From a virus (taxonomy: Duplodnaviria > Caudoviricetes), in IMG/VR virus record IMGVR_UViG_3300037067_019204, positions 97,312-161,311 of that record: DNA of 64,000 nt. One strand, given 5' to 3'. The notes below the pieces were generated by a model. That model made no database searches, had not been told where the DNA came from, and was given only the letters and a program-made list of their open reading frames with translations. Every line of letters starts with the position of its first letter. Position 1 is the first letter of the stretch. Both the position numbers and the translations under genes were made by a program. Below are positions 2,812-44,966 of the stretch, piece after piece.

Positions 2812-5800
2812 ATGGCATTAGGTGATAAATTATTAGATCCCGGTTTTAACCCAACTGATCCATCACGATCAAAAATTGATGGCTTTCCTTATTTTAAAAG
2901 TGTAATAAAATGTCCTGTTACTTTTACCAATGATATTATTGAATACGCAGAGAGCAAGGATTTCATCGGGGGTAAACTTCGCCCTTTACAAAAATTATTT
3001 CTGGAAGAACTTTTTTCAAGAGATACTTTGGGCAATTACAGATATACTGAAGGTGTGCTGTGTTCAGGAATGCGCGGAGGTAAGACGCTTATAAAAGGCA
3101 CACCTTTGCTTATGTATAATGGCACAATAAAAAAAGTTGAAGAGCTTCATCTTGGTGATTTAGTAATGGGTCCAGATTCAACACCTCGTACTGTATTAGA
3201 AATACATAGTGGTGTGTCGGAGCTTTTTGAAATACAACAATCTTGTGCAATGACATATACTGTTAATGAATACCACATACTTTCTCTTAAAAAAGCCCAA
3301 TCAGCTAAAAATGCAGATTTAAAATCACGTAATAGCAGGGGACGTTTTCCCAACGAACCAGAAATTGTTAATATACCAATTAAAGATTATTTAAAAAAAT
3401 CTAAGAAATGGAAATATTTCTTTAGGGGGTACAAAGCAGGACTAATAAATTTTCCAATTAAGGAAGTTTTATTAGATCCTTACTTTCTAGCTTGTTGGCT
3501 TGCCGATGGTACATCTATAGCCCCAGAGATAACATCTCCTGATATAGAAATAAAAAGTTATTTACAAGATTTTGCAAATAAGAACAATTTAAGATTATCT
3601 GTTGGTAAGAAAAAAGGAACAACAGCAGAAACACTTCGTTTATGCCGCATAACGGGAATGGCAAATCCAATTTTAGATAAATTAAAATCTTTAAATGTCT
3701 ACAATAATAAACATATACCATTAGAATATATTGCAAATAGTAAAGAAATAAGATTACAAATATTAGCTGGGATGCTTGATTGTGATGGTTATTATACAAA
3801 AAAGCATGGATATGAAATAACATTAGCTAATAAAACATTGGCATATGATGTTAAACGTATTGCTGATACTTTAGGATACAGGACACACATAAGACATAAA
3901 AGAACAACATGTAATTATAATAATTTTGTTGGGGATGGTTGGAGATTATCTATTTATGGAAATGTTTGGGAAATACCATGTAAAGTAGAAAGAAAAAAGT
4001 ATGTTTACAATGGAAAGTTTTCAAATAAGGAGCAAGGTTTATCTTCTCTTAAAGTAACTTCGATTGGACAAGGAGAATATTATGGAATCGGTGTTGACAA
4101 AGATAACCTATATTGCCTAGCCGATGGTACTGTAACACACAATTCTTGGTTAGCTGCTTTAATTAGTACATATATGACTCAATTCATGCTTCAGTTTAAT
4201 GACCCTGCTGTCCAATTTGGGCAATCACCCGGAACTCGTCTTACTGCACAATGTATTGCCACAACAGAGATCCAAGCAAAAGAAACAGTTTTTGCCCATG
4301 TAGAAAGTTTGATTTCAAAAACAGATTGGTGGAAAAAATATATTTCTTATTTGGTGGAAAGGGAAACTGCTGAAAATAAAAAAGGTCAATTATTTACACA
4401 GTTTAAATTAGCATTTGAATTTCCTGAAAAAAGTTTAGCCATACTTTCTTTGCACTCAAACTCTGGTGCTTTAGCTGGTAAAACAAGTTATTGTGTTGTT
4501 CTTGATGAGCTTAGTCGATTTGATGTGGCAGAAGGGAGCGTACAAACAAGAGAGGAAAAAAGAACAGCCGATGCTGTATACTCTACTGTAACACGTTCTT
4601 GCTCAACACTGGGTGCAATAAGTAAAGTTGTAACCATATCTTCTCCTATGTTTGAAGACGATTACACCATGCAATTGGTTGGAATGGCTGGGGCGTGTTA
4701 TGTTAATCAAATGGCATCTATTATAAATCCTTTACGAACAAAGTATGATAGTAAAAGAGCACCTAGCTTATATGCTATGCATGCTACAAGTTTTGAATTA
4801 AATCCAAAAACAGAAGATAATCCAACAGGGCTATCAGAAGATGACCCACGATTTATTAATGAAAAACAAAAGAATCCTGAGACATATAGACGTGACTATT
4901 TAGCTATACCACCTGCAACTATTAATCCATTTTTTGAATATCCAGAACGGATTGATAGGGTTATCCATAAAAGAGATAAAATGGTATTATTTTCTGATAA
5001 AATAATAGAAGAAATGATTCAGAGTGATCATGGTGCTATTCAACGTTTATACATAGGAAAAAAAGTATTGCCTTTGATTCAAGATAGAATGAAGAAATAT
5101 TATGTTTGTGTTGACCAAGGAGAAAAGAAAGACCATTTTACATTAGCAATGGGACATGTTGAAGAGATCCCTATAGAGACTCAAAAAGAAAGTGGGGAAA
5201 AAGAAGAAAGAATAAGACTTAAAATAATTATAGATTTTGTTGAGGGCTGGGTTCCTGATAAAGAAAACCGTGTTACAGTTTCATTTCAAAATGTGGAAGA
5301 ATCTATTAAGCTTCTTTGCACATGGTTTAATGTTGGTTCGGTAGCGTATGACCAATGGGCATCTATTGAATCAATCCAAAGATTGTTTTCAGAAGGTATT
5401 TATACTCAACAACTTGGTGCAACAATTGAAATGTATGATATTTTTAAACAACTTATTTATCAAGGACAAATTGAACTTCCAGATCATGAAATTCTTTTAC
5501 GTGAACTTAAACAATTAACAAATATAAAATCTAAAAAAATTGAACACCCTGTTTCTGGAAGTAAAGACTACTCAGATGCTTGTTGCCGTGTTATTTGGTT
5601 GTGTTATGAAGAATATATCCTTAATACAATAGAGGGTAAACATATTTTACCCATGCGCCAGAGTCTTCCAACCATACGATCAGTTGCCACTTTTTATGAG
5701 TTAGCAAGAATGAATCAGAACAATCCCCATGCCGCTATATGGGGGCAGAGTCGAGCCGGAGAAGGGGTGTTTGGAGACGGGATGGTCGTGCGGCAAAATG

Positions 5801-5826
5801 TGATGCCAAATTTAAAAAATAATTAA
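2812..5826 (+). CDS. terL: Terminase large subunit with intein
   Basis: LRPLQ; Walker A GMRGGK/S restored after splicing; Walker B VVLDE; TISSP; nuclease motifs CVDQG, AYDQW, IEHP..GSKDYSDA. Confidence 0.9.
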   Translation: MALGDKLLDPGFNPTDPSRSKIDGFPYFKSVIKCPVTFTNDIIEYAESKDFIGGKLRPLQKLFLEELFSRDTLGNYRYTEGVLCSGMRGGKTLIKGTPLLMYNGTIKKVEELHLGDLVMGPDSTPRTVLEIHSGVSELFEIQQSCAMTYTVNEYHILSLKKAQSAKNADLKSRNSRGRFPNEPEIVNIPIKDYLKKSKKWKYFFRGYKAGLINFPIKEVLLDPYFLACWLADGTSIAPEITSPDIEIKSYLQDFANKNNLRLSVGKKKGTTAETLRLCRITGMANPILDKLKSLNVYNNKHIPLEYIANSKEIRLQILAGMLDCDGYYTKKHGYEITLANKTLAYDVKRIADTLGYRTHIRHKRTTCNYNNFVGDGWRLSIYGNVWEIPCKVERKKYVYNGKFSNKEQGLSSLKVTSIGQGEYYGIGVDKDNLYCLADGTVTHNSWLAALISTYMTQFMLQFNDPAVQFGQSPGTRLTAQCIATTEIQAKETVFAHVESLISKTDWWKKYISYLVERETAENKKGQLFTQFKLAFEFPEKSLAILSLHSNSGALAGKTSYCVVLDELSRFDVAEGSVQTREEKRTADAVYSTVTRSCSTLGAISKVVTISSPMFEDDYTMQLVGMAGACYVNQMASIINPLRTKYDSKRAPSLYAMHATSFELNPKTEDNPTGLSEDDPRFINEKQKNPETYRRDYLAIPPATINPFFEYPERIDRVIHKRDKMVLFSDKIIEEMIQSDHGAIQRLYIGKKVLPLIQDRMKKYYVCVDQGEKKDHFTLAMGHVEEIPIETQKESGEKEERIRLKIIIDFVEGWVPDKENRVTVSFQNVEESIKLLCTWFNVGSVAYDQWASIESIQRLFSEGIYTQQLGATIEMYDIFKQLIYQGQIELPDHEILLRELKQLTNIKSKKIEHPVSGSKDYSDACCRVIWLCYEEYILNTIEGKHILPMRQSLPTIRSVATFYELARMNQNNPHAAIWGQSRAGEGVFGDGMVVRQNVMPNLKNN
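3085..4143 (+). mobile_element. Intein (353 aa) with LAGLIDADG homing endonuclease, inserted in the terminase Walker A motif
   Basis: Block A TLIKGTPLLMYNG, block B VNEYHIL, WLADG and LAGMLDCDG, C-terminal VTHN followed by +1 Ser. Confidence 0.92.
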
Positions 5827-5827
5827 T

Positions 5828-5865
5828 AAAAAAACGGGTAAAGACCTTTCGATCTTTACCCGTTT
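5828..5865 (-). terminator. Rho-independent terminator at the convergence point
   Basis: 13 bp stem AAACGGGTAAAGA/TCTTTACCCGTTT; GAAA tetraloop and U7 run on the minus strand. Confidence 0.85.
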
Positions 5866-5867
5866 AT

Positions 5868-6008
5868 CAGAAGTAAACGCACAGGATTGTGAGTGGTAGC
5901 AAAAAAATGTGTGATCTATTTTGCCCCTTCTCAAAAAGAAATTGTCTGATACAATTTCTCCTTTAAGGCCAGTCTTCTTAATGCAAGAAGAAACTAAACG
6001 GTTGGCCT
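5868..6008 (-). ncRNA. Putative tracrRNA-like structured RNA with anti-repeat
   Basis: 5868-5886 is complementary to the CRISPR repeat (6 bp + internal loop + 10 bp); hairpins at 5937-5959 and 5966-6008. Confidence 0.45.
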
Positions 6009-6049
6009 AATTTATATTATATTTTTTCTTATATATTCAAGGTGCCTAT

Positions 6050-6260
6050 CCAGTCTTCCTGTGCGTAAGGGCTTCTAGTCTGCTGTTGTCTCTTAAAGTA
6101 TACTAAACATCCCGTCTTCCTGTGCGTAAGGGCTTCTATCAGAAAGAAACATGTAATGTATTCCTTTTGAACCCGTCTTCCTGTGCGTAAGGGCTTCTAA
6201 GAAACATTAATAGATTGTAGCTATTAGAATACCCCGTCTTCCTGTGCGTAAGGGCTTCTA
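6050..6260 (-). CRISPR. CRISPR mini-array, 4 repeats and 3 spacers, no cas genes in window
   Basis: 28 bp repeat CCCGTCTTCCTGTGCGTAAGGGCTTCTA at 6050 (one mismatch), 6111, 6172 and 6233; three unique spacers of exactly 33 bp. Confidence 0.88.
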
Positions 6261-6362
6261 AGGCCCACAGCTTGTGACAAACATTGAGTATATAAGCATT
6301 AAAATAAGTGTAATCATTGCTGATATAATAACAGAACAATATATCCACAAAAACATATCCAT
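6258..6362 (-). CDS. 34 aa hydrophobic peptide whose TAG stop is the first 3 nt of the first CRISPR repeat
   Basis: GAGGTG RBS, ATG at 6362; MDMFLWIYCSVIISAMITLILMLIYSMFVTSCGP*. Confidence 0.55.
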   Translation of the reverse strand: MDMFLWIYCSVIISAMITLILMLIYSMFVTSCGP

Positions 6363-18132: not shown

Positions 18133-19323
18133 TCATTTTATCCCAAACTCCCTTTTAACTAAATTTAAATATTCCGCATCTTGACATTGTGCCTTTTCAG
18201 GTTCGTCACTGATTTTAGCTACAGGTTTATCATTAACTCTTTGAATCTTCATCACAATAGATATAGGCTTAGAATTAGGAATATCATTGGTTAGATTAGT
18301 TCCTATGCCAAAAGATACGTTTATACTTTTATCAAACGTTCTTTTTAGTTTGATGGCTTTAGTAAAATTAAGATTATCAGAAAATATAATTGTTTTTGTT
18401 TTTGGGTCAATACCCAATTTTATATAATGATTAACTACTTTAGTTCCAATACTAAATGGGTCTCCACTATCTTGTCGAACCCCATCATACAGATTGGCAA
18501 AATATTTATCAAAATCATTCAAAAAAGCATCAATCCCAATAGTATCAGTTAATGCAATCCCAAGACTTCCACGGTATACATCTGCCCATTTCTGTAACAT
18601 AAATCTTTGGCTTTCTTTTAAAGATGGTGCAAGAACCTCACCTGCCATAAGCCATTCATGTGCCATAGTTCCCACAGGTTTAAGATTAAATCTTTTTGCC
18701 ATAGCCACATTAGATGTTCCCATAAACAAATTCCGGTCAGAGTAATAATTAAAATAATTAACAACATCTTCTTGCCAAGATTTAGAGAACCTTCTCCGTG
18801 TACCAAAATCTGCAAACTTTATCTCGTTTGAATTTGCTATTAATATTTTACGAAAGGTTCTGTCTATTCTTCCTTTTATAAAGAAATAGTATTCTTCCAT
18901 ATCAATAGCAGAAGGAATGGTGTGCCTAAAAAAAACTTCACTGATAATAGCTAACACAGGAACTTCAAACAAAATGGTTTCATACCAAGACCCTTTCACT
19001 TTAAAAGAAAAAGGTTTTTCATTCATTTCAATACAATTAAAATTAGGAGTATAGTCTTTAAGACTATCTATATAATCTTTATTGAAATAAGGAAGAGTAC
19101 TAAGATAACCCAATTCCTCATTAGTGAATTTAAGACTGCACCAATGTTTTAGCTCTTCTTTTATTTCATCATAATAAGGAGAAAGATCTTCCCCACTTCG
19201 GCATTTGAATTCATATTCCACCATTGTATCAGGAAATTGATGAAACACCGCATTTTGCATCGTTAATTTGTATAAATCTGTATCTAATAGACTATTTATA
19301 ATCATGGTCATACTCCCAATCAC
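18133..19323 (-). CDS. pncB: Nicotinate phosphoribosyltransferase
   Basis: LLDTDLYKLTM, DFGTRRRFS, GTSNV, GTMAHEW, LTDT, GVRQDSGDP, FGIGTNLT, AKISD. Confidence 0.95.
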   Translation of the reverse strand: MIGSMTMIINSLLDTDLYKLTMQNAVFHQFPDTMVEYEFKCRSGEDLSPYYDEIKEELKHWCSLKFTNEELGYLSTLPYFNKDYIDSLKDYTPNFNCIEMNEKPFSFKVKGSWYETILFEVPVLAIISEVFFRHTIPSAIDMEEYYFFIKGRIDRTFRKILIANSNEIKFADFGTRRRFSKSWQEDVVNYFNYYSDRNLFMGTSNVAMAKRFNLKPVGTMAHEWLMAGEVLAPSLKESQRFMLQKWADVYRGSLGIALTDTIGIDAFLNDFDKYFANLYDGVRQDSGDPFSIGTKVVNHYIKLGIDPKTKTIIFSDNLNFTKAIKLKRTFDKSINVSFGIGTNLTNDIPNSKPISIVMKIQRVNDKPVAKISDEPEKAQCQDAEYLNLVKREFGIK

Positions 19324-20131
19324 AGAATCTTCTCAATGAAAAACTTTCTGGGATTTTGTTTTTATGGTTATTCTTGTCATGCATTTGTTCCACAAACTGA
19401 AAACATTTTGAATCGGTGTTTACATGTGAAGTTATATATGAATTGTAGTAAGTCTTTATTGATTCTTCTATTTCATTATATGTAAACCCAAGTTCTCCTT
19501 CATCAGTTTGTCCTTCCCACAAACCCGCTGACGGAATTTTGTTTATAAGGTTTTCTGGGAGATACTTTGTATCAACAAAATATTGAAGTACTTGGTAAAC
19601 CTCACTTTTAAAAAGTTCACCTATAGGATTACAATCAACACCACCATCCCCATACTTTGTAAAGTATCCAATAAAGTTCTCACTCAGATTATCTGTTCCC
19701 ATAACCCGCACTTTATCATCAAAGAATGAATTAGATAATTCCTCCACAATAGAATACAGAATAGTCATTCTTAATCTGGCCTTCATATTTCCTTTTGTCA
19801 GTTTTGTGGTGGGATGGGAAGACGGATTTTTCCAAATCTTTGTTATAATTTCCTCTTGGAGCATTTCAGCTATTCCACCAACAGGAACTGTTATTGAATT
19901 TATACCTAAATGTTTAGCCAGTTTTGTGGAATCTGAATTAAATGTAGACAAGTCAAACCTATCTGCTGGCATATGAACACCAAATACTTTATTATTTCCC
20001 AGTGCCTGTACACAAAGAGTTGCCACAAGAGTAGAATCTGCTCCACCACTTAAACCAATGACAGCTATATCCGTGAATTCTTTAATTTGTTTGGTTATGC
20101 TTTTTATAAGACCCTGAATATCTGTTATCAT
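19292..20131 (-). CDS. nadE: NH3-dependent NAD+ synthetase
   Basis: GLSGGADS, GNMKARLRM, GYFTKYGDG, PSAGLWEGQTDE.ELG. Confidence 0.95.
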   Translation of the reverse strand: MITDIQGLIKSITKQIKEFTDIAVIGLSGGADSTLVATLCVQALGNNKVFGVHMPADRFDLSTFNSDSTKLAKHLGINSITVPVGGIAEMLQEEIITKIWKNPSSHPTTKLTKGNMKARLRMTILYSIVEELSNSFFDDKVRVMGTDNLSENFIGYFTKYGDGGVDCNPIGELFKSEVYQVLQYFVDTKYLPENLINKIPSAGLWEGQTDEGELGFTYNEIEESIKTYYNSYITSHVNTDSKCFQFVEQMHDKNNHKNKIPESFSLRRFCDWEYDHDYK

Positions 20132-32673: not shown

Positions 32674-33294
32674 TTAGCTCTTTTTGCCCTTCTTCGCATC
32701 TTTTGTGACCATCTGCCGGGAGTCTTTCTTGACTACCTGCTTCGAGTCCTTTTTGACGATCTTCTTTTCCGATGCTTTCTTTACAGGCTTTTTGTTGGCT
32801 TTCTTGACATCCTGATATTCTTTCAGGTTGTCAGCTTTTTCCAGCCGGGATTTAATATCAGCAACAAGGGCATCCACCATTGCCACCGACATTGCGTTCT
32901 TTACTGAATACGGAAGACCGTAGTAAAGAGCCGACCGGGTGTTAATAGAGCCACGCTTGGGGTGATTGATCTGCTTGAAGCCATCACAATCAAACCCGGA
33001 AACGACCGCACCCCTTGAATTTTTCAGTGAGTAGAACACCACACGCACAGGGGTCTTAAGGCCGAATCTTTTAACCATATTCATGAGAACTTCCCGAACC
33101 TGTTTCGGGAGCAGGGCTTTACCATGAAACGTCGGGTAAATGGAGGCGATATTGTTCTCAACCCTCCGTATAGCCTCTACCTTATCGGACACTTTTTTGG
33201 ACAGAGAATCTTCTTTGTCCAGATTTGATGCAACCACATCAGCCAGAGATTCAAACTCTTTGCGGGTGTAGCTCATTTCAACATGTTTTACCAT
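32674..33294 (-). CDS. Stand-alone protein sharing the amidoligase C-terminal domain
   Basis: FYSLKNSRGAVVSG..CDGFKQINHP...GLPY matches the C-termini of 30850..32553 and 35832..37022. Confidence 0.7.
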   Translation of the reverse strand: MVKHVEMSYTRKEFESLADVVASNLDKEDSLSKKVSDKVEAIRRVENNIASIYPTFHGKALLPKQVREVLMNMVKRFGLKTPVRVVFYSLKNSRGAVVSGFDCDGFKQINHPKRGSINTRSALYYGLPYSVKNAMSVAMVDALVADIKSRLEKADNLKEYQDVKKANKKPVKKASEKKIVKKDSKQVVKKDSRQMVTKDAKKGKKS

Positions 33295-39687: not shown

Positions 39688-40836
39688 TTAGTCCTCTTCT
39701 TCTATTGACTTTAAGTTAAAAATTGGTTTCATTATAAAATGAATATCAACAGATTCCTCAATGGCATTTACAATTTGATTACTATCCTTATAAACCTCTG
39801 GAGATTCATCAAGAGTAGATTTACAAATACTTTTGCTCCATATGCCTTGCATATCCTCTTTCATTTTTTCTAATGATAATGTATTCTTTGCTTTCTTCCT
39901 GCTTAATACACGCCCCGCCCCATGAGGAGCAGAGAAGTTCCATTTTGGATTTCCTTTTCCTTCCCCGACAATAACACCATCACGCATATTTAAAGGGATA
40001 AGAACTTTTTCACCTTTATGTGCAGAGATTGCACCCTTTCTTATGATATTATCATTAAAGTTAATATAGTTATGGGCGCATTTTATAATTTCTATAGGTT
40101 GCGCATGAAAGAAATCAATAATTGTATTAGCAATACTTTTCCTGTTCAATTCAGCATAGCTTTGTGCTATCTTCATACTGTTTAAATATTCGGTTCCTCC
40201 GTAGTTTATTGGTAAAAATTCCAATCCTTTATAAATATCACCAATAAACATTTCATGCATCAGTTTTTTTGCTTTGTCCTGATAGTATTCACATATGGTC
40301 TTGCCAAAGTTTCGACTCCCCGTATGAATGGTTAACCACACATTACTATCAGGGTCTATATTCAGTTCAATAAAATGATTGCCACCACCCAAACTACCTA
40401 TACCAAGAATAACACGATTAACATCAACCCCTATCTTTTCAGCCAGACCTATGATCTGATCTTTGTAAGGTTGAGCTAATGATAGAAACTCAGAAGACGG
40501 TTTATTTCTCACATGAAAACCATCAGGTATATTAGTTCGTATATAATTTTCCAATGACTCAAAAAAAGAATCAGTCATTGATACTTTCCCAAGATTATAA
40601 GACTCAATACTGCAATGTATATCAACACCTATAACATTAGGGATAATATACTGATTTGATTGTTTGGTAAAACCAATACAAATTCCTTTGCCAGCATGAC
40701 AATCAGGCATAACAGCAATATATCCGTGTTCAAATGCAGGATGATTTAATATTGATTGTAGTTGTTCTTTCAATTCGTCTTCAATATTATCAATCATTAC
40801 ATTTGCGGTATTGTATTTGCCTTTAAAGGTAATCAT
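39688..40836 (-). CDS. rtcB: RtcB RNA ligase
   Basis: MPDCHAG, GVDIHC, LGGGNHFIE, HTGSRNFG, HNY, RKGA, SAPHGAGR, DESPEVYK. Confidence 0.93.
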   Translation of the reverse strand: MITFKGKYNTANVMIDNIEDELKEQLQSILNHPAFEHGYIAVMPDCHAGKGICIGFTKQSNQYIIPNVIGVDIHCSIESYNLGKVSMTDSFFESLENYIRTNIPDGFHVRNKPSSEFLSLAQPYKDQIIGLAEKIGVDVNRVILGIGSLGGGNHFIELNIDPDSNVWLTIHTGSRNFGKTICEYYQDKAKKLMHEMFIGDIYKGLEFLPINYGGTEYLNSMKIAQSYAELNRKSIANTIIDFFHAQPIEIIKCAHNYINFNDNIIRKGAISAHKGEKVLIPLNMRDGVIVGEGKGNPKWNFSAPHGAGRVLSRKKAKNTLSLEKMKEDMQGIWSKSICKSTLDESPEVYKDSNQIVNAIEESVDIHFIMKPIFNLKSIEEED

Positions 40837-44743: not shown

Positions 44744-44966
44744 ATGCTTTTAAGAAACAACTAGTTTCAAACATCCGTTGTTTATTTATGCCTCTGCTAG
44801 TCCAAATTCTGCCACTTAAGTATGTCCCATCATAAGGAGCGTTTCCCTTAAGTCTTAGACAGGCTAATTGTGTTGTCCCATGAATTGTCCCTTCAAAGAG
44901 TAAGTTATGCCTTAAGCAATGAGGACAAAGAGGGCCGCACTCATTTATTAAAAGTATCTTGCCCAT
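44736..44966 (-). CDS. Small Cys-rich 'KII-CxxxC' family protein, recent duplicate of 44480..44743
   Basis: MGKILLINECGPLCPHC; shares TQLACLRLKG, YDGT and RG.NKQ with its neighbour. Confidence 0.75.
   Translation of the reverse strand: MGKILLINECGPLCPHCLRHNLLFEGTIHGTTQLACLRLKGNAPYDGTYLSGRIWTSRGINKQRMFETSCFLKAYE

Follow-up and report, generated by a model that had tools for sequence, protein, structure and literature searches.

Which effector could a short CRISPR array serve when no cas gene lies beside it? The question is raised by a locus on the minus strand of a phage record, at which four direct repeats are followed by a structured RNA. The DNA analyzed here (the window, 64 kb in length) comprises bases 97312-161311 of a 161,311-bp IMG/VR record, which is linear, has a G+C content of ~31%, and is ~65% complete as estimated by CheckV. 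Positions are given in window coordinates unless genome positions are indicated. Phage-borne type V-F/V-U3 systems without adaptation genes and orphan arrays of jumbo phages are already known, and the idea that orphan arrays serve effectors encoded elsewhere has also been published (PMC7162821, PMC11160803).

A mini-CRISPR array at the end of a minus-strand gene block

The plus-strand genes stop at 5826 with the gene for the terminase large subunit, which carries an intein, whereas the minus strand carries essentially all genes from 6258 onward. Genes on both sides converge on the cassette described here (the array together with the RNA that flanks it), which lies where a very long minus-strand block, made up mostly of small ORFs, has its 3' end. 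The features on its 5' side, all on the minus strand, were as follows.

6258-6362, minus: hydrophobic ORF of 34 aa that closes the long minus-strand block; its ribosome-binding site is good
6287-6314, minus: promoter-like site ATTACA-N16-TATACT inside the 34-aa ORF (by consensus match only)
6050-6260, minus: mini-CRISPR array (array B) of 4 x 28-nt repeats and 3 x 33-nt spacers, with a period of exactly 61 nt
6260-6233, 6199-6172, 6138-6111, and 6077-6050, minus: repeats of array B, the last degenerate by 1 nt
6232-6200, 6171-6139, and 6110-6078, minus: spacers of array B, unique, 33 nt each

Array B has the make-up required of CRISPR arrays, with three or more near-identical repeats (size range 23-50 nt) and, between them, unique spacers that are similar in length. 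A 25-nt repeat core was identical in all four copies, and no repeat matches were expected by chance (0/100 shuffles). Three of the copies were identical throughout, and the copy at 6050-6077 had one base changed (CCA for CCC). A degenerate repeat usually marks the distal end of an array, and its location at 6050 fits transcription of array B from the minus strand. The initial annotation, made from the letters of the DNA, had described four 28-bp repeats with three 33-bp spacers and had placed the start of the first repeat in the stop codon of a 34-aa ORF. Positions and shuffles bore out the former, and the latter was confirmed, as the TAG stop of the ORF (6258..6362, minus) forms the first 3 nt of repeat 1. 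The promoter-like site at 6287..6314 would start a pre-crRNA ~20 nt before repeat 1.

The array B repeat showed no hairpin, and its folding was no better than that of shuffled sequences on either strand. The 61-nt period had been noted earlier as a likeness to type I-E, which turned out to be irrelevant, as there was no repeat hairpin and no array match in the collections searched. The class 1 reading was rejected on the repeat without a hairpin, the different register, and the lack of class 1 cas genes among the ORFs scanned.

In a landfill run from another study and another year, the cassette and its spacers were identical wherever contigs covered them. The cassette was identical in samples from two habitats, four years apart, and its flanks were equally identical. 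Contigs of related strains parted from the phage at window position 5811, at the end of the terminase gene, in both runs, indicating that the cassette region is variable between strains.

The array is followed by a structured RNA with an anti-repeat

Downstream of array B on the minus strand, the following features were recorded.

6011-6040, minus: promoter-like site TTGAAT-N18-TATAAA, directly past the last repeat (by consensus match only)
5966-6008, minus: first tracr hairpin, whose unpaired internal loop contains CCGUUU (6001-5996)
5934-5963, minus: AU-rich hairpin of ~12 bp with a 5-nt loop, adjoining the scaffold core on its 5' side (from folding)
5889-5933, minus: scaffold core of UGAGAAGG, an inner hairpin, and CCACUCAC, the counterpart of the invariant GGUGAG ... 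CACUCAC stem of Cas12f-clade tracrRNA
5868-5886, minus: long anti-repeat, pairing with about positions 1-21 of the repeat and leaving ~6 nt of the repeat 3' end free
5832-5865, minus: intrinsic terminator with a 15-bp stem, a GAAA loop, and a U-run (from folding)

The 225-nt stretch that reaches from the last repeat to the U-run folded with a z score of -4.8 against shuffles, forming three hairpins and the 15-bp GAAA-capped terminator. This terminator closes the minus-strand unit, and the stop codon of the convergent terminase gene is 6 nt away. The duplex between anti-repeat and repeat consisted of 6 bp, a 5x3 internal loop, and 10 Watson-Crick bp, with an energy of -23.6 to -24.4 kcal/mol. 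Both observations agree with the initial annotation, in which hairpins preceded the anti-repeat and a GAAA-capped hairpin with a U-run followed it; likewise, the anti-repeat that it had assigned to 5886-5868, with pairing of 6 bp, a 5x3 loop, and 10 bp, was reproduced by co-folding at about -24 kcal/mol.

A sliding scan along the entire minus strand of the 161-kb record ranked the anti-repeat third among duplex sites. Two sites in coding regions paired better with the array B repeat (genome 49252-49281, minus, and window 33031-33060, minus; -27.5 and -27.0 kcal/mol). Both are in coding DNA and were taken as chance matches.

The promoter-like site between the last repeat and the anti-repeat (6040-6011) could give a free tracrRNA, as a separate transcript of ~175 nt. 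On a co-transcript, the last repeat of array B is predicted to pair in cis with the anti-repeat.

The phage encodes one Cas12f1 with an array of its own

No cas gene was found in the 64-kb window, and to this extent the description of the locus as Cas-less was correct. It does not extend to the whole record, which encodes one Cas12f1 of 455 aa (G000:C1:12408-13775, minus), ~90 kb from array B. The protein matched the PADLOC models for Cas12f (E = 9e-104) and Cas12u3 (E = 1e-102) over the full length of the models, and its closest structures were those of AsCas12f (8J3R/8J12) and CnCas12f1 (8HR5). The Asp/Glu/Asp (D/E/D) positions of the RuvC domain were kept, suggesting that the enzyme is a catalytically intact Cas12f1 of type V-F1 (formerly V-U3). 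Its gene was the sole PF07282 gene in the record. The scan for cas genes covered ORFs of ~380 aa or more and a few smaller ones, with a 574-aa ORF (genome 78620-80344) left out, and revealed no cas gene other than cas12f among the ORFs scanned.

Directly downstream of cas12f lies array A, which has six repeats and a different, 32-nt repeat sequence. A k-mer scan showed that arrays A and B are the only two in the record. A simple duplex scan around cas12f was uninformative about the anti-repeat of array A, which was located with the scaffold motif as an anchor. The locus outside the window (L028, G000:C1:11960-13775) forms a complete phage type V-F1 system composed of cas12f, a tracrRNA scaffold, and the six-repeat array. 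The annotated cas12f ORF reads on through the tracrRNA scaffold and measures 459 aa from stop to stop, compared with 413 aa in relatives.

A tracrRNA shared by the Cas12f clade

Homologues of the phage Cas12f1 with 40-83% identity were present in phage-like contigs, and an RNA element adjoined the gene or the array of each of them. The clade tracrRNA was defined from ten independent phage loci, with the cassette left out of the alignment. Its layout is a 7-bp hairpin (hairpin 1), an invariant GGUGAG, a variable hairpin, an invariant CACUCAC, UAAU, and a tail complementary to the repeat, which is the long anti-repeat. When nine of the elements were aligned, covariation was seen at five of the seven pairs of hairpin 1.

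The tails paired best with the repeat of their own locus, and in the same register, in every locus tested (6/6). They begin 2-3 nt past CACUCAC (8 nt in one locus) and leave 4-8 nt, mostly 6, of the repeat 3' end free. The free end has a partner of its own: in eight loci, representing six sequence combinations, the loop of hairpin 1 paired 6/6 with the final 6 nt of the locus's own repeat and thereby acts as a short anti-repeat in pairing terms. The same geometry of a long and a short repeat/anti-repeat duplex, the latter a pseudoknot, has been described for Cas12f1 (PMC11246509). In AsCas12f1, the short duplex was reported to be crucial, and complete replacement of the sequence of both duplexes left function intact (PMC11246509). 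The placement of the clade element next to the array is the one used experimentally for V-U3 systems (PMC7229846).

Two loci showed variations of this arrangement. At L041:559-680, the repeat's final 8 nt and a stretch as long as a spacer stand between the tracrRNA tail, which they directly follow, and the first full repeat; judged by its sequence, this segment looks like a natural fused single guide. At L042, two copies of the tracrRNA scaffold (286-377 and 1922-2034) flank one cas12f gene, and an array follows the downstream copy only.

The cassette RNA carries the core signature of the clade tracrRNA

Read on the minus strand from 5933 to 5868, the cassette consists of UGAGAAGG, an inner hairpin, CCACUCAC, AAU, and then the anti-repeat. 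Its core keeps UGAG and CACUCAC and retains five of the six core pairs, one of them through a compensatory change, and the sixth is mismatched. The signature TGAG-N25-75-CACTCAC, derived from the clade loci and not from the cassette, occurred exactly twice on both strands of the 161 kb, namely in the tracrRNA of cas12f and at 5933-5889 (minus) in the cassette. CACTCAC has seven occurrences in the record, so that the probability of finding the end of one 1-4 nt ahead of a given site by chance is ~9e-5.

A covariance model built without the cassette (R1) matched 5890-5933 (minus) with 13 bits, corresponding to an E value of 0.83 in the whole record and of 0.0012 in the stretch that the initial annotation had named beforehand. 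With a tighter model (R2), the cassette scored 7 bits, which is below the R1 score (E = 0.035 in the region), and none of its genome-wide matches with E values up to 10 fell on the cassette. Support from the covariance models is weak, varies with the model, and would not carry the claim alone. The assignment as a Cas12f tracrRNA is made because of a conjunction, in which the core signature, an immediately adjacent anti-repeat, and the repeat register shared with the clade coincide. The best non-cognate match of R1 was at window 44867-44956 (plus; 15.1 bits, E = 0.21); as the hairpin pairs are broken there and no array is nearby, it is probably a chance match and not a tracrRNA.

Among the loci compared, the cassette tail paired best with its own repeat. 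The cognate duplex reached -23.6 kcal/mol, compared with -7.0 to -11.1 kcal/mol for the tails of other loci on the array B repeat and -5.8 to -9.3 kcal/mol for the cassette tail on the repeats of other loci. The sets of arrays A and B did not cross-pair (-4 and -8 kcal/mol, vs -11 and -24 kcal/mol for the cognate combinations). As in the clade, the long anti-repeat of the cassette lies directly 3' of the core and leaves 6 nt of the repeat end free.

The short anti-repeat of the clade had no convincing counterpart. The homologous loop, in the hairpin just 5' of the cassette core, cannot pair with the repeat end. The only alternative, CCGUUU (6001-5996) in the more 5' hairpin, was equalled or beaten by 35% of shuffles. 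Since the short duplex is reported to be crucial in AsCas12f1, the function of the cassette is not assured.

In the cassette, the array precedes the tracrRNA, which is the reverse of the order in the related loci. Its tracrRNA adjoins its own array but sits ~90 kb from cas12f, unlike the clade placement. The tail and the 3' half of the repeat were nearest to those of the distant locus L041 and not to those of the phage's own locus, which suggests that the cassette has a lineage different from that of the cas-proximal set.

Searches for relatives, hosts, and targets

No exact 22-mer of the array B repeat was found in IMG/VR, and no 14-nt core pair was found in 185,579 species genomes; a repeat-end pattern gave only chance matches in ubiX-like coding DNA. 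In the JGI metagenomes, a 12-nt core pair detected unrelated tandem repeats only. Thus, with two pattern designs that required exact cores, no host array with this repeat was detected in species-representative genomes or JGI metagenomes. A comparison with Rfam returned nothing meaningful.

No relative carrying the cassette was found, either with the repeat and scaffold patterns in IMG/VR or among relatives found through the terminase; in two of the latter, whose terminase is 63% identical, no array follows the terminase gene. A complete relative of the phage (G001) is without Cas12f, and no close Cas12f relatives were found in IMG/VR. The clade scaffold pattern had no match in IMG/VR, and a cassette-like scaffold pattern had four, all of which were judged to be chance matches. 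For the three spacers, no protospacers were found in the phage's own genome, in G001, in IMG/VR (exact 22-24-mers), in a phage collection, or in a plasmid collection.

A guide RNA cassette that could work in trans

Taken together, the scaffold core and an anti-repeat in the register of the clade support the earlier proposal that the locus supplies crRNAs together with a tracrRNA-like RNA of its own and that the effector is encoded elsewhere, possibly in the phage. The proposal had also called for an unusual effector. Because the same record encodes a Cas12f1, this part is probably to be replaced by a known type, V-F1. As for uses, it had named action against competitors, host gene repression, and a decoy role, and the spacers gave no protospacer by which these might be judged. 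We favor, with a probability of roughly 0.55, the interpretation that the locus is a self-contained guide RNA cassette of the Cas12f type (V-F) that works in trans, most simply with the phage's own Cas12f. Judging from the genes and RNA elements of the record, the most likely effector would be this Cas12f1, ~90 kb away.

In the proposed mechanism, the minus strand would be transcribed, either by read-through from the upstream block of small genes or from the two promoter-like sites, and the transcript would be processed. The long anti-repeat at the 3' part of the tracrRNA would pair with positions 1-21 of each repeat, a Cas12f dimer would bind the scaffold (the UGAG ... CACUCAC stem and the hairpins), and the spacer 3' of each repeat would guide PAM-dependent recognition of DNA targets. 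The lack of cross-pairing between sets A and B would explain why array B carries its own tracrRNA. Because the duplexes of AsCas12f1 are fully re-sequenceable (PMC11246509), one Cas12f could accept two repeat/anti-repeat pairs. We therefore raise, tentatively and at less than even odds, the possibility that one Cas12f is fed by two orthogonal tracrRNA:crRNA sets, one beside its gene and one detached from it, past the block of small genes.

A working Cas12f-type cassette might instead serve another Cas12f-like effector, encoded in the missing third of the genome, by the host, or by a co-infecting element. The divergence of the scaffold from the phage's own tracrRNA (the core-pair mismatch, a different hairpin 1, and a 28-nt vs a 32-nt repeat) speaks for such a partner, as do the incompleteness of the record (~65% complete) and the closeness of the cassette tail and repeat to those of the distant L041 rather than the phage's own. 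We nevertheless regard it as unlikely, given that the ORFs scanned in the 161 kb included neither a second PF07282 gene nor another cas gene, that the complete relative G001 is without any Cas12f, and that the repeat was absent, with the patterns used, from the 185,579 species genomes, IMG/VR, and the JGI metagenomes. It is also quite improbable that the cassette is a non-functional relic, derived from a second Cas12f locus minus its nuclease gene or from a rearranged recombination fragment. The expected hairpin without a short anti-repeat, the reversed order relative to the related loci, and the lack of an adjacent cas gene and of a detectable target would suit such a remnant; however, three repeats are identical and the fourth is only 1 nt off, the anti-repeat retains 16 pairs, and the cassette still has its strong terminator, both promoter-like sites, and an RNA that folds well (z = -4.8). 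The identity of the cassette across two habitats and four years points in the same direction, but weakly, because the identity extends to the flanks.

Some phages are known to exploit host Cas proteins by means of mini-arrays or solitary repeats, and the cassette stands at the end of an apparent early gene block, so that an RNA decoy or anti-CRISPR has to be considered, which would mimic the Cas12f RNAs of a host or a rival phage and sequester or misdirect the nuclease, or re-arm it with guides of the phage's choosing. The idea also appears in the literature (PMC7162821). It has little probability here: a host array with the array B repeat was not found in the collections searched, and the phage has its own nuclease of the matching class, which is the simpler explanation. 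Hardly any weight is given to a non-CRISPR origin, in which the 28-bp repeats would be protein-binding sites near the terminase gene, such as packaging sites or replication iterons. The repeats do lie directly downstream of the gene for the terminase large subunit and have no adjacent cas gene, but the exact 61-bp period, the unique spacers of equal length, the near-perfect repeats, and a flanking RNA with the Cas12f tracrRNA signature and a 16-bp anti-repeat are at odds with this origin, and relatives with a 63% identical terminase have nothing similar downstream of it. Finally, a type II (Cas9) system was rejected, since the Pfam scan of ORFs of ~380 aa or more and a few smaller ones (excluding the 574-aa ORF at genome 78620-80344) detected no Cas9-like protein and the repeat measures 28 nt, not ~36 nt.

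Relation to known systems

The system closest to the Cas12f-type cassette is type V-F1, represented by AsCas12f1, CnCas12f1, and SpCas12f1. A miniature effector of the clade is encoded in the same genome, no adaptation module is present, and the RNA likewise has a structured tracrRNA scaffold with a 3' long anti-repeat that forms a bulged duplex with the repeat. In addition, the tracrRNA of AsCas12f1 engages ~28 nt of RNA (PMC11246509), and the array B repeat is 28 nt long. The cassette differs in being ~90 kb from cas12f, not between the gene and the array (PMC7229846), in its order of array and then tracrRNA, and in its unconvincing short anti-repeat (pseudoknot). Moreover, its repeat sequence is unrelated to the repeat beside the phage's cas12f.

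Array B also resembles the orphan arrays of jumbo phages (PMC7162821) and landfill megaphages (PMC11160803), which are short, without adaptation genes, and far from cas genes; the phage studied here likewise exceeds 160 kb and comes from groundwater and landfill. In contrast to those arrays, array B has its own cognate tracrRNA, orthogonal to the cas-proximal array, so that its link to a specific effector class can be tested.

The likeness to type II tracrRNA:crRNA (Cas9) is limited to three features, in that the repeat is unstructured, its duplex with the anti-repeat is bulged, and a terminator hairpin closes the tracrRNA; by contrast, no Cas9/HNH-RuvC protein occurs among the scanned ORFs, the repeat has 28 nt vs 36 nt or more, and the scaffold has the Cas12f-clade signature. 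The omega-RNA of TnpB and the Cas12f scaffold have a common ancestry. Similar to omega-RNA, the scaffold of the phage's cas12f locus overlaps the 3' end of the ORF, whereas the guide of the cassette is encoded in an array and would join the scaffold in trans by way of a repeat:anti-repeat duplex, and there are no transposon ends.

The new element is an orphan array with a cognate tracrRNA of the Cas12f kind, which is orthogonal to the cas-proximal set, lies ~90 kb from it, and has the reversed order. Orphan arrays of large phages are usually left unexplained, and the tracrRNA of array B ties it to a defined effector class, which yields a testable hypothesis. If the phage does use both sets with one Cas12f, different guide sets could be loaded at different times or under different promoters, which would amount to a guide system, multiplexed and addressable and found in nature, around one effector. 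Nature would then already be using the sequence freedom of the Cas12f duplexes known from engineering, and a ready-made pair of orthogonal guide scaffolds would be available for the 455-aa nuclease. It would also mean that cassettes of tracrRNA and array move and evolve independently of cas genes.

Other features of the record

The intein of the terminase large subunit (window 2812-5826, plus) consists of a Hint and a LAGLIDADG domain, and a second ORF with an intein, of 1452 aa, was found at genome 53117-57475. The record also contains cargo that is unusual for a phage, including a Ro60/TROVE protein (genome 34944-36581, minus), the RNA ligase RtcB (window 39688-40836, minus), the NAD salvage genes for NAPRTase and NAD synthase (window 18133-20131, minus), and a tubulin/FtsZ-like protein (genome 93946-95085, plus).
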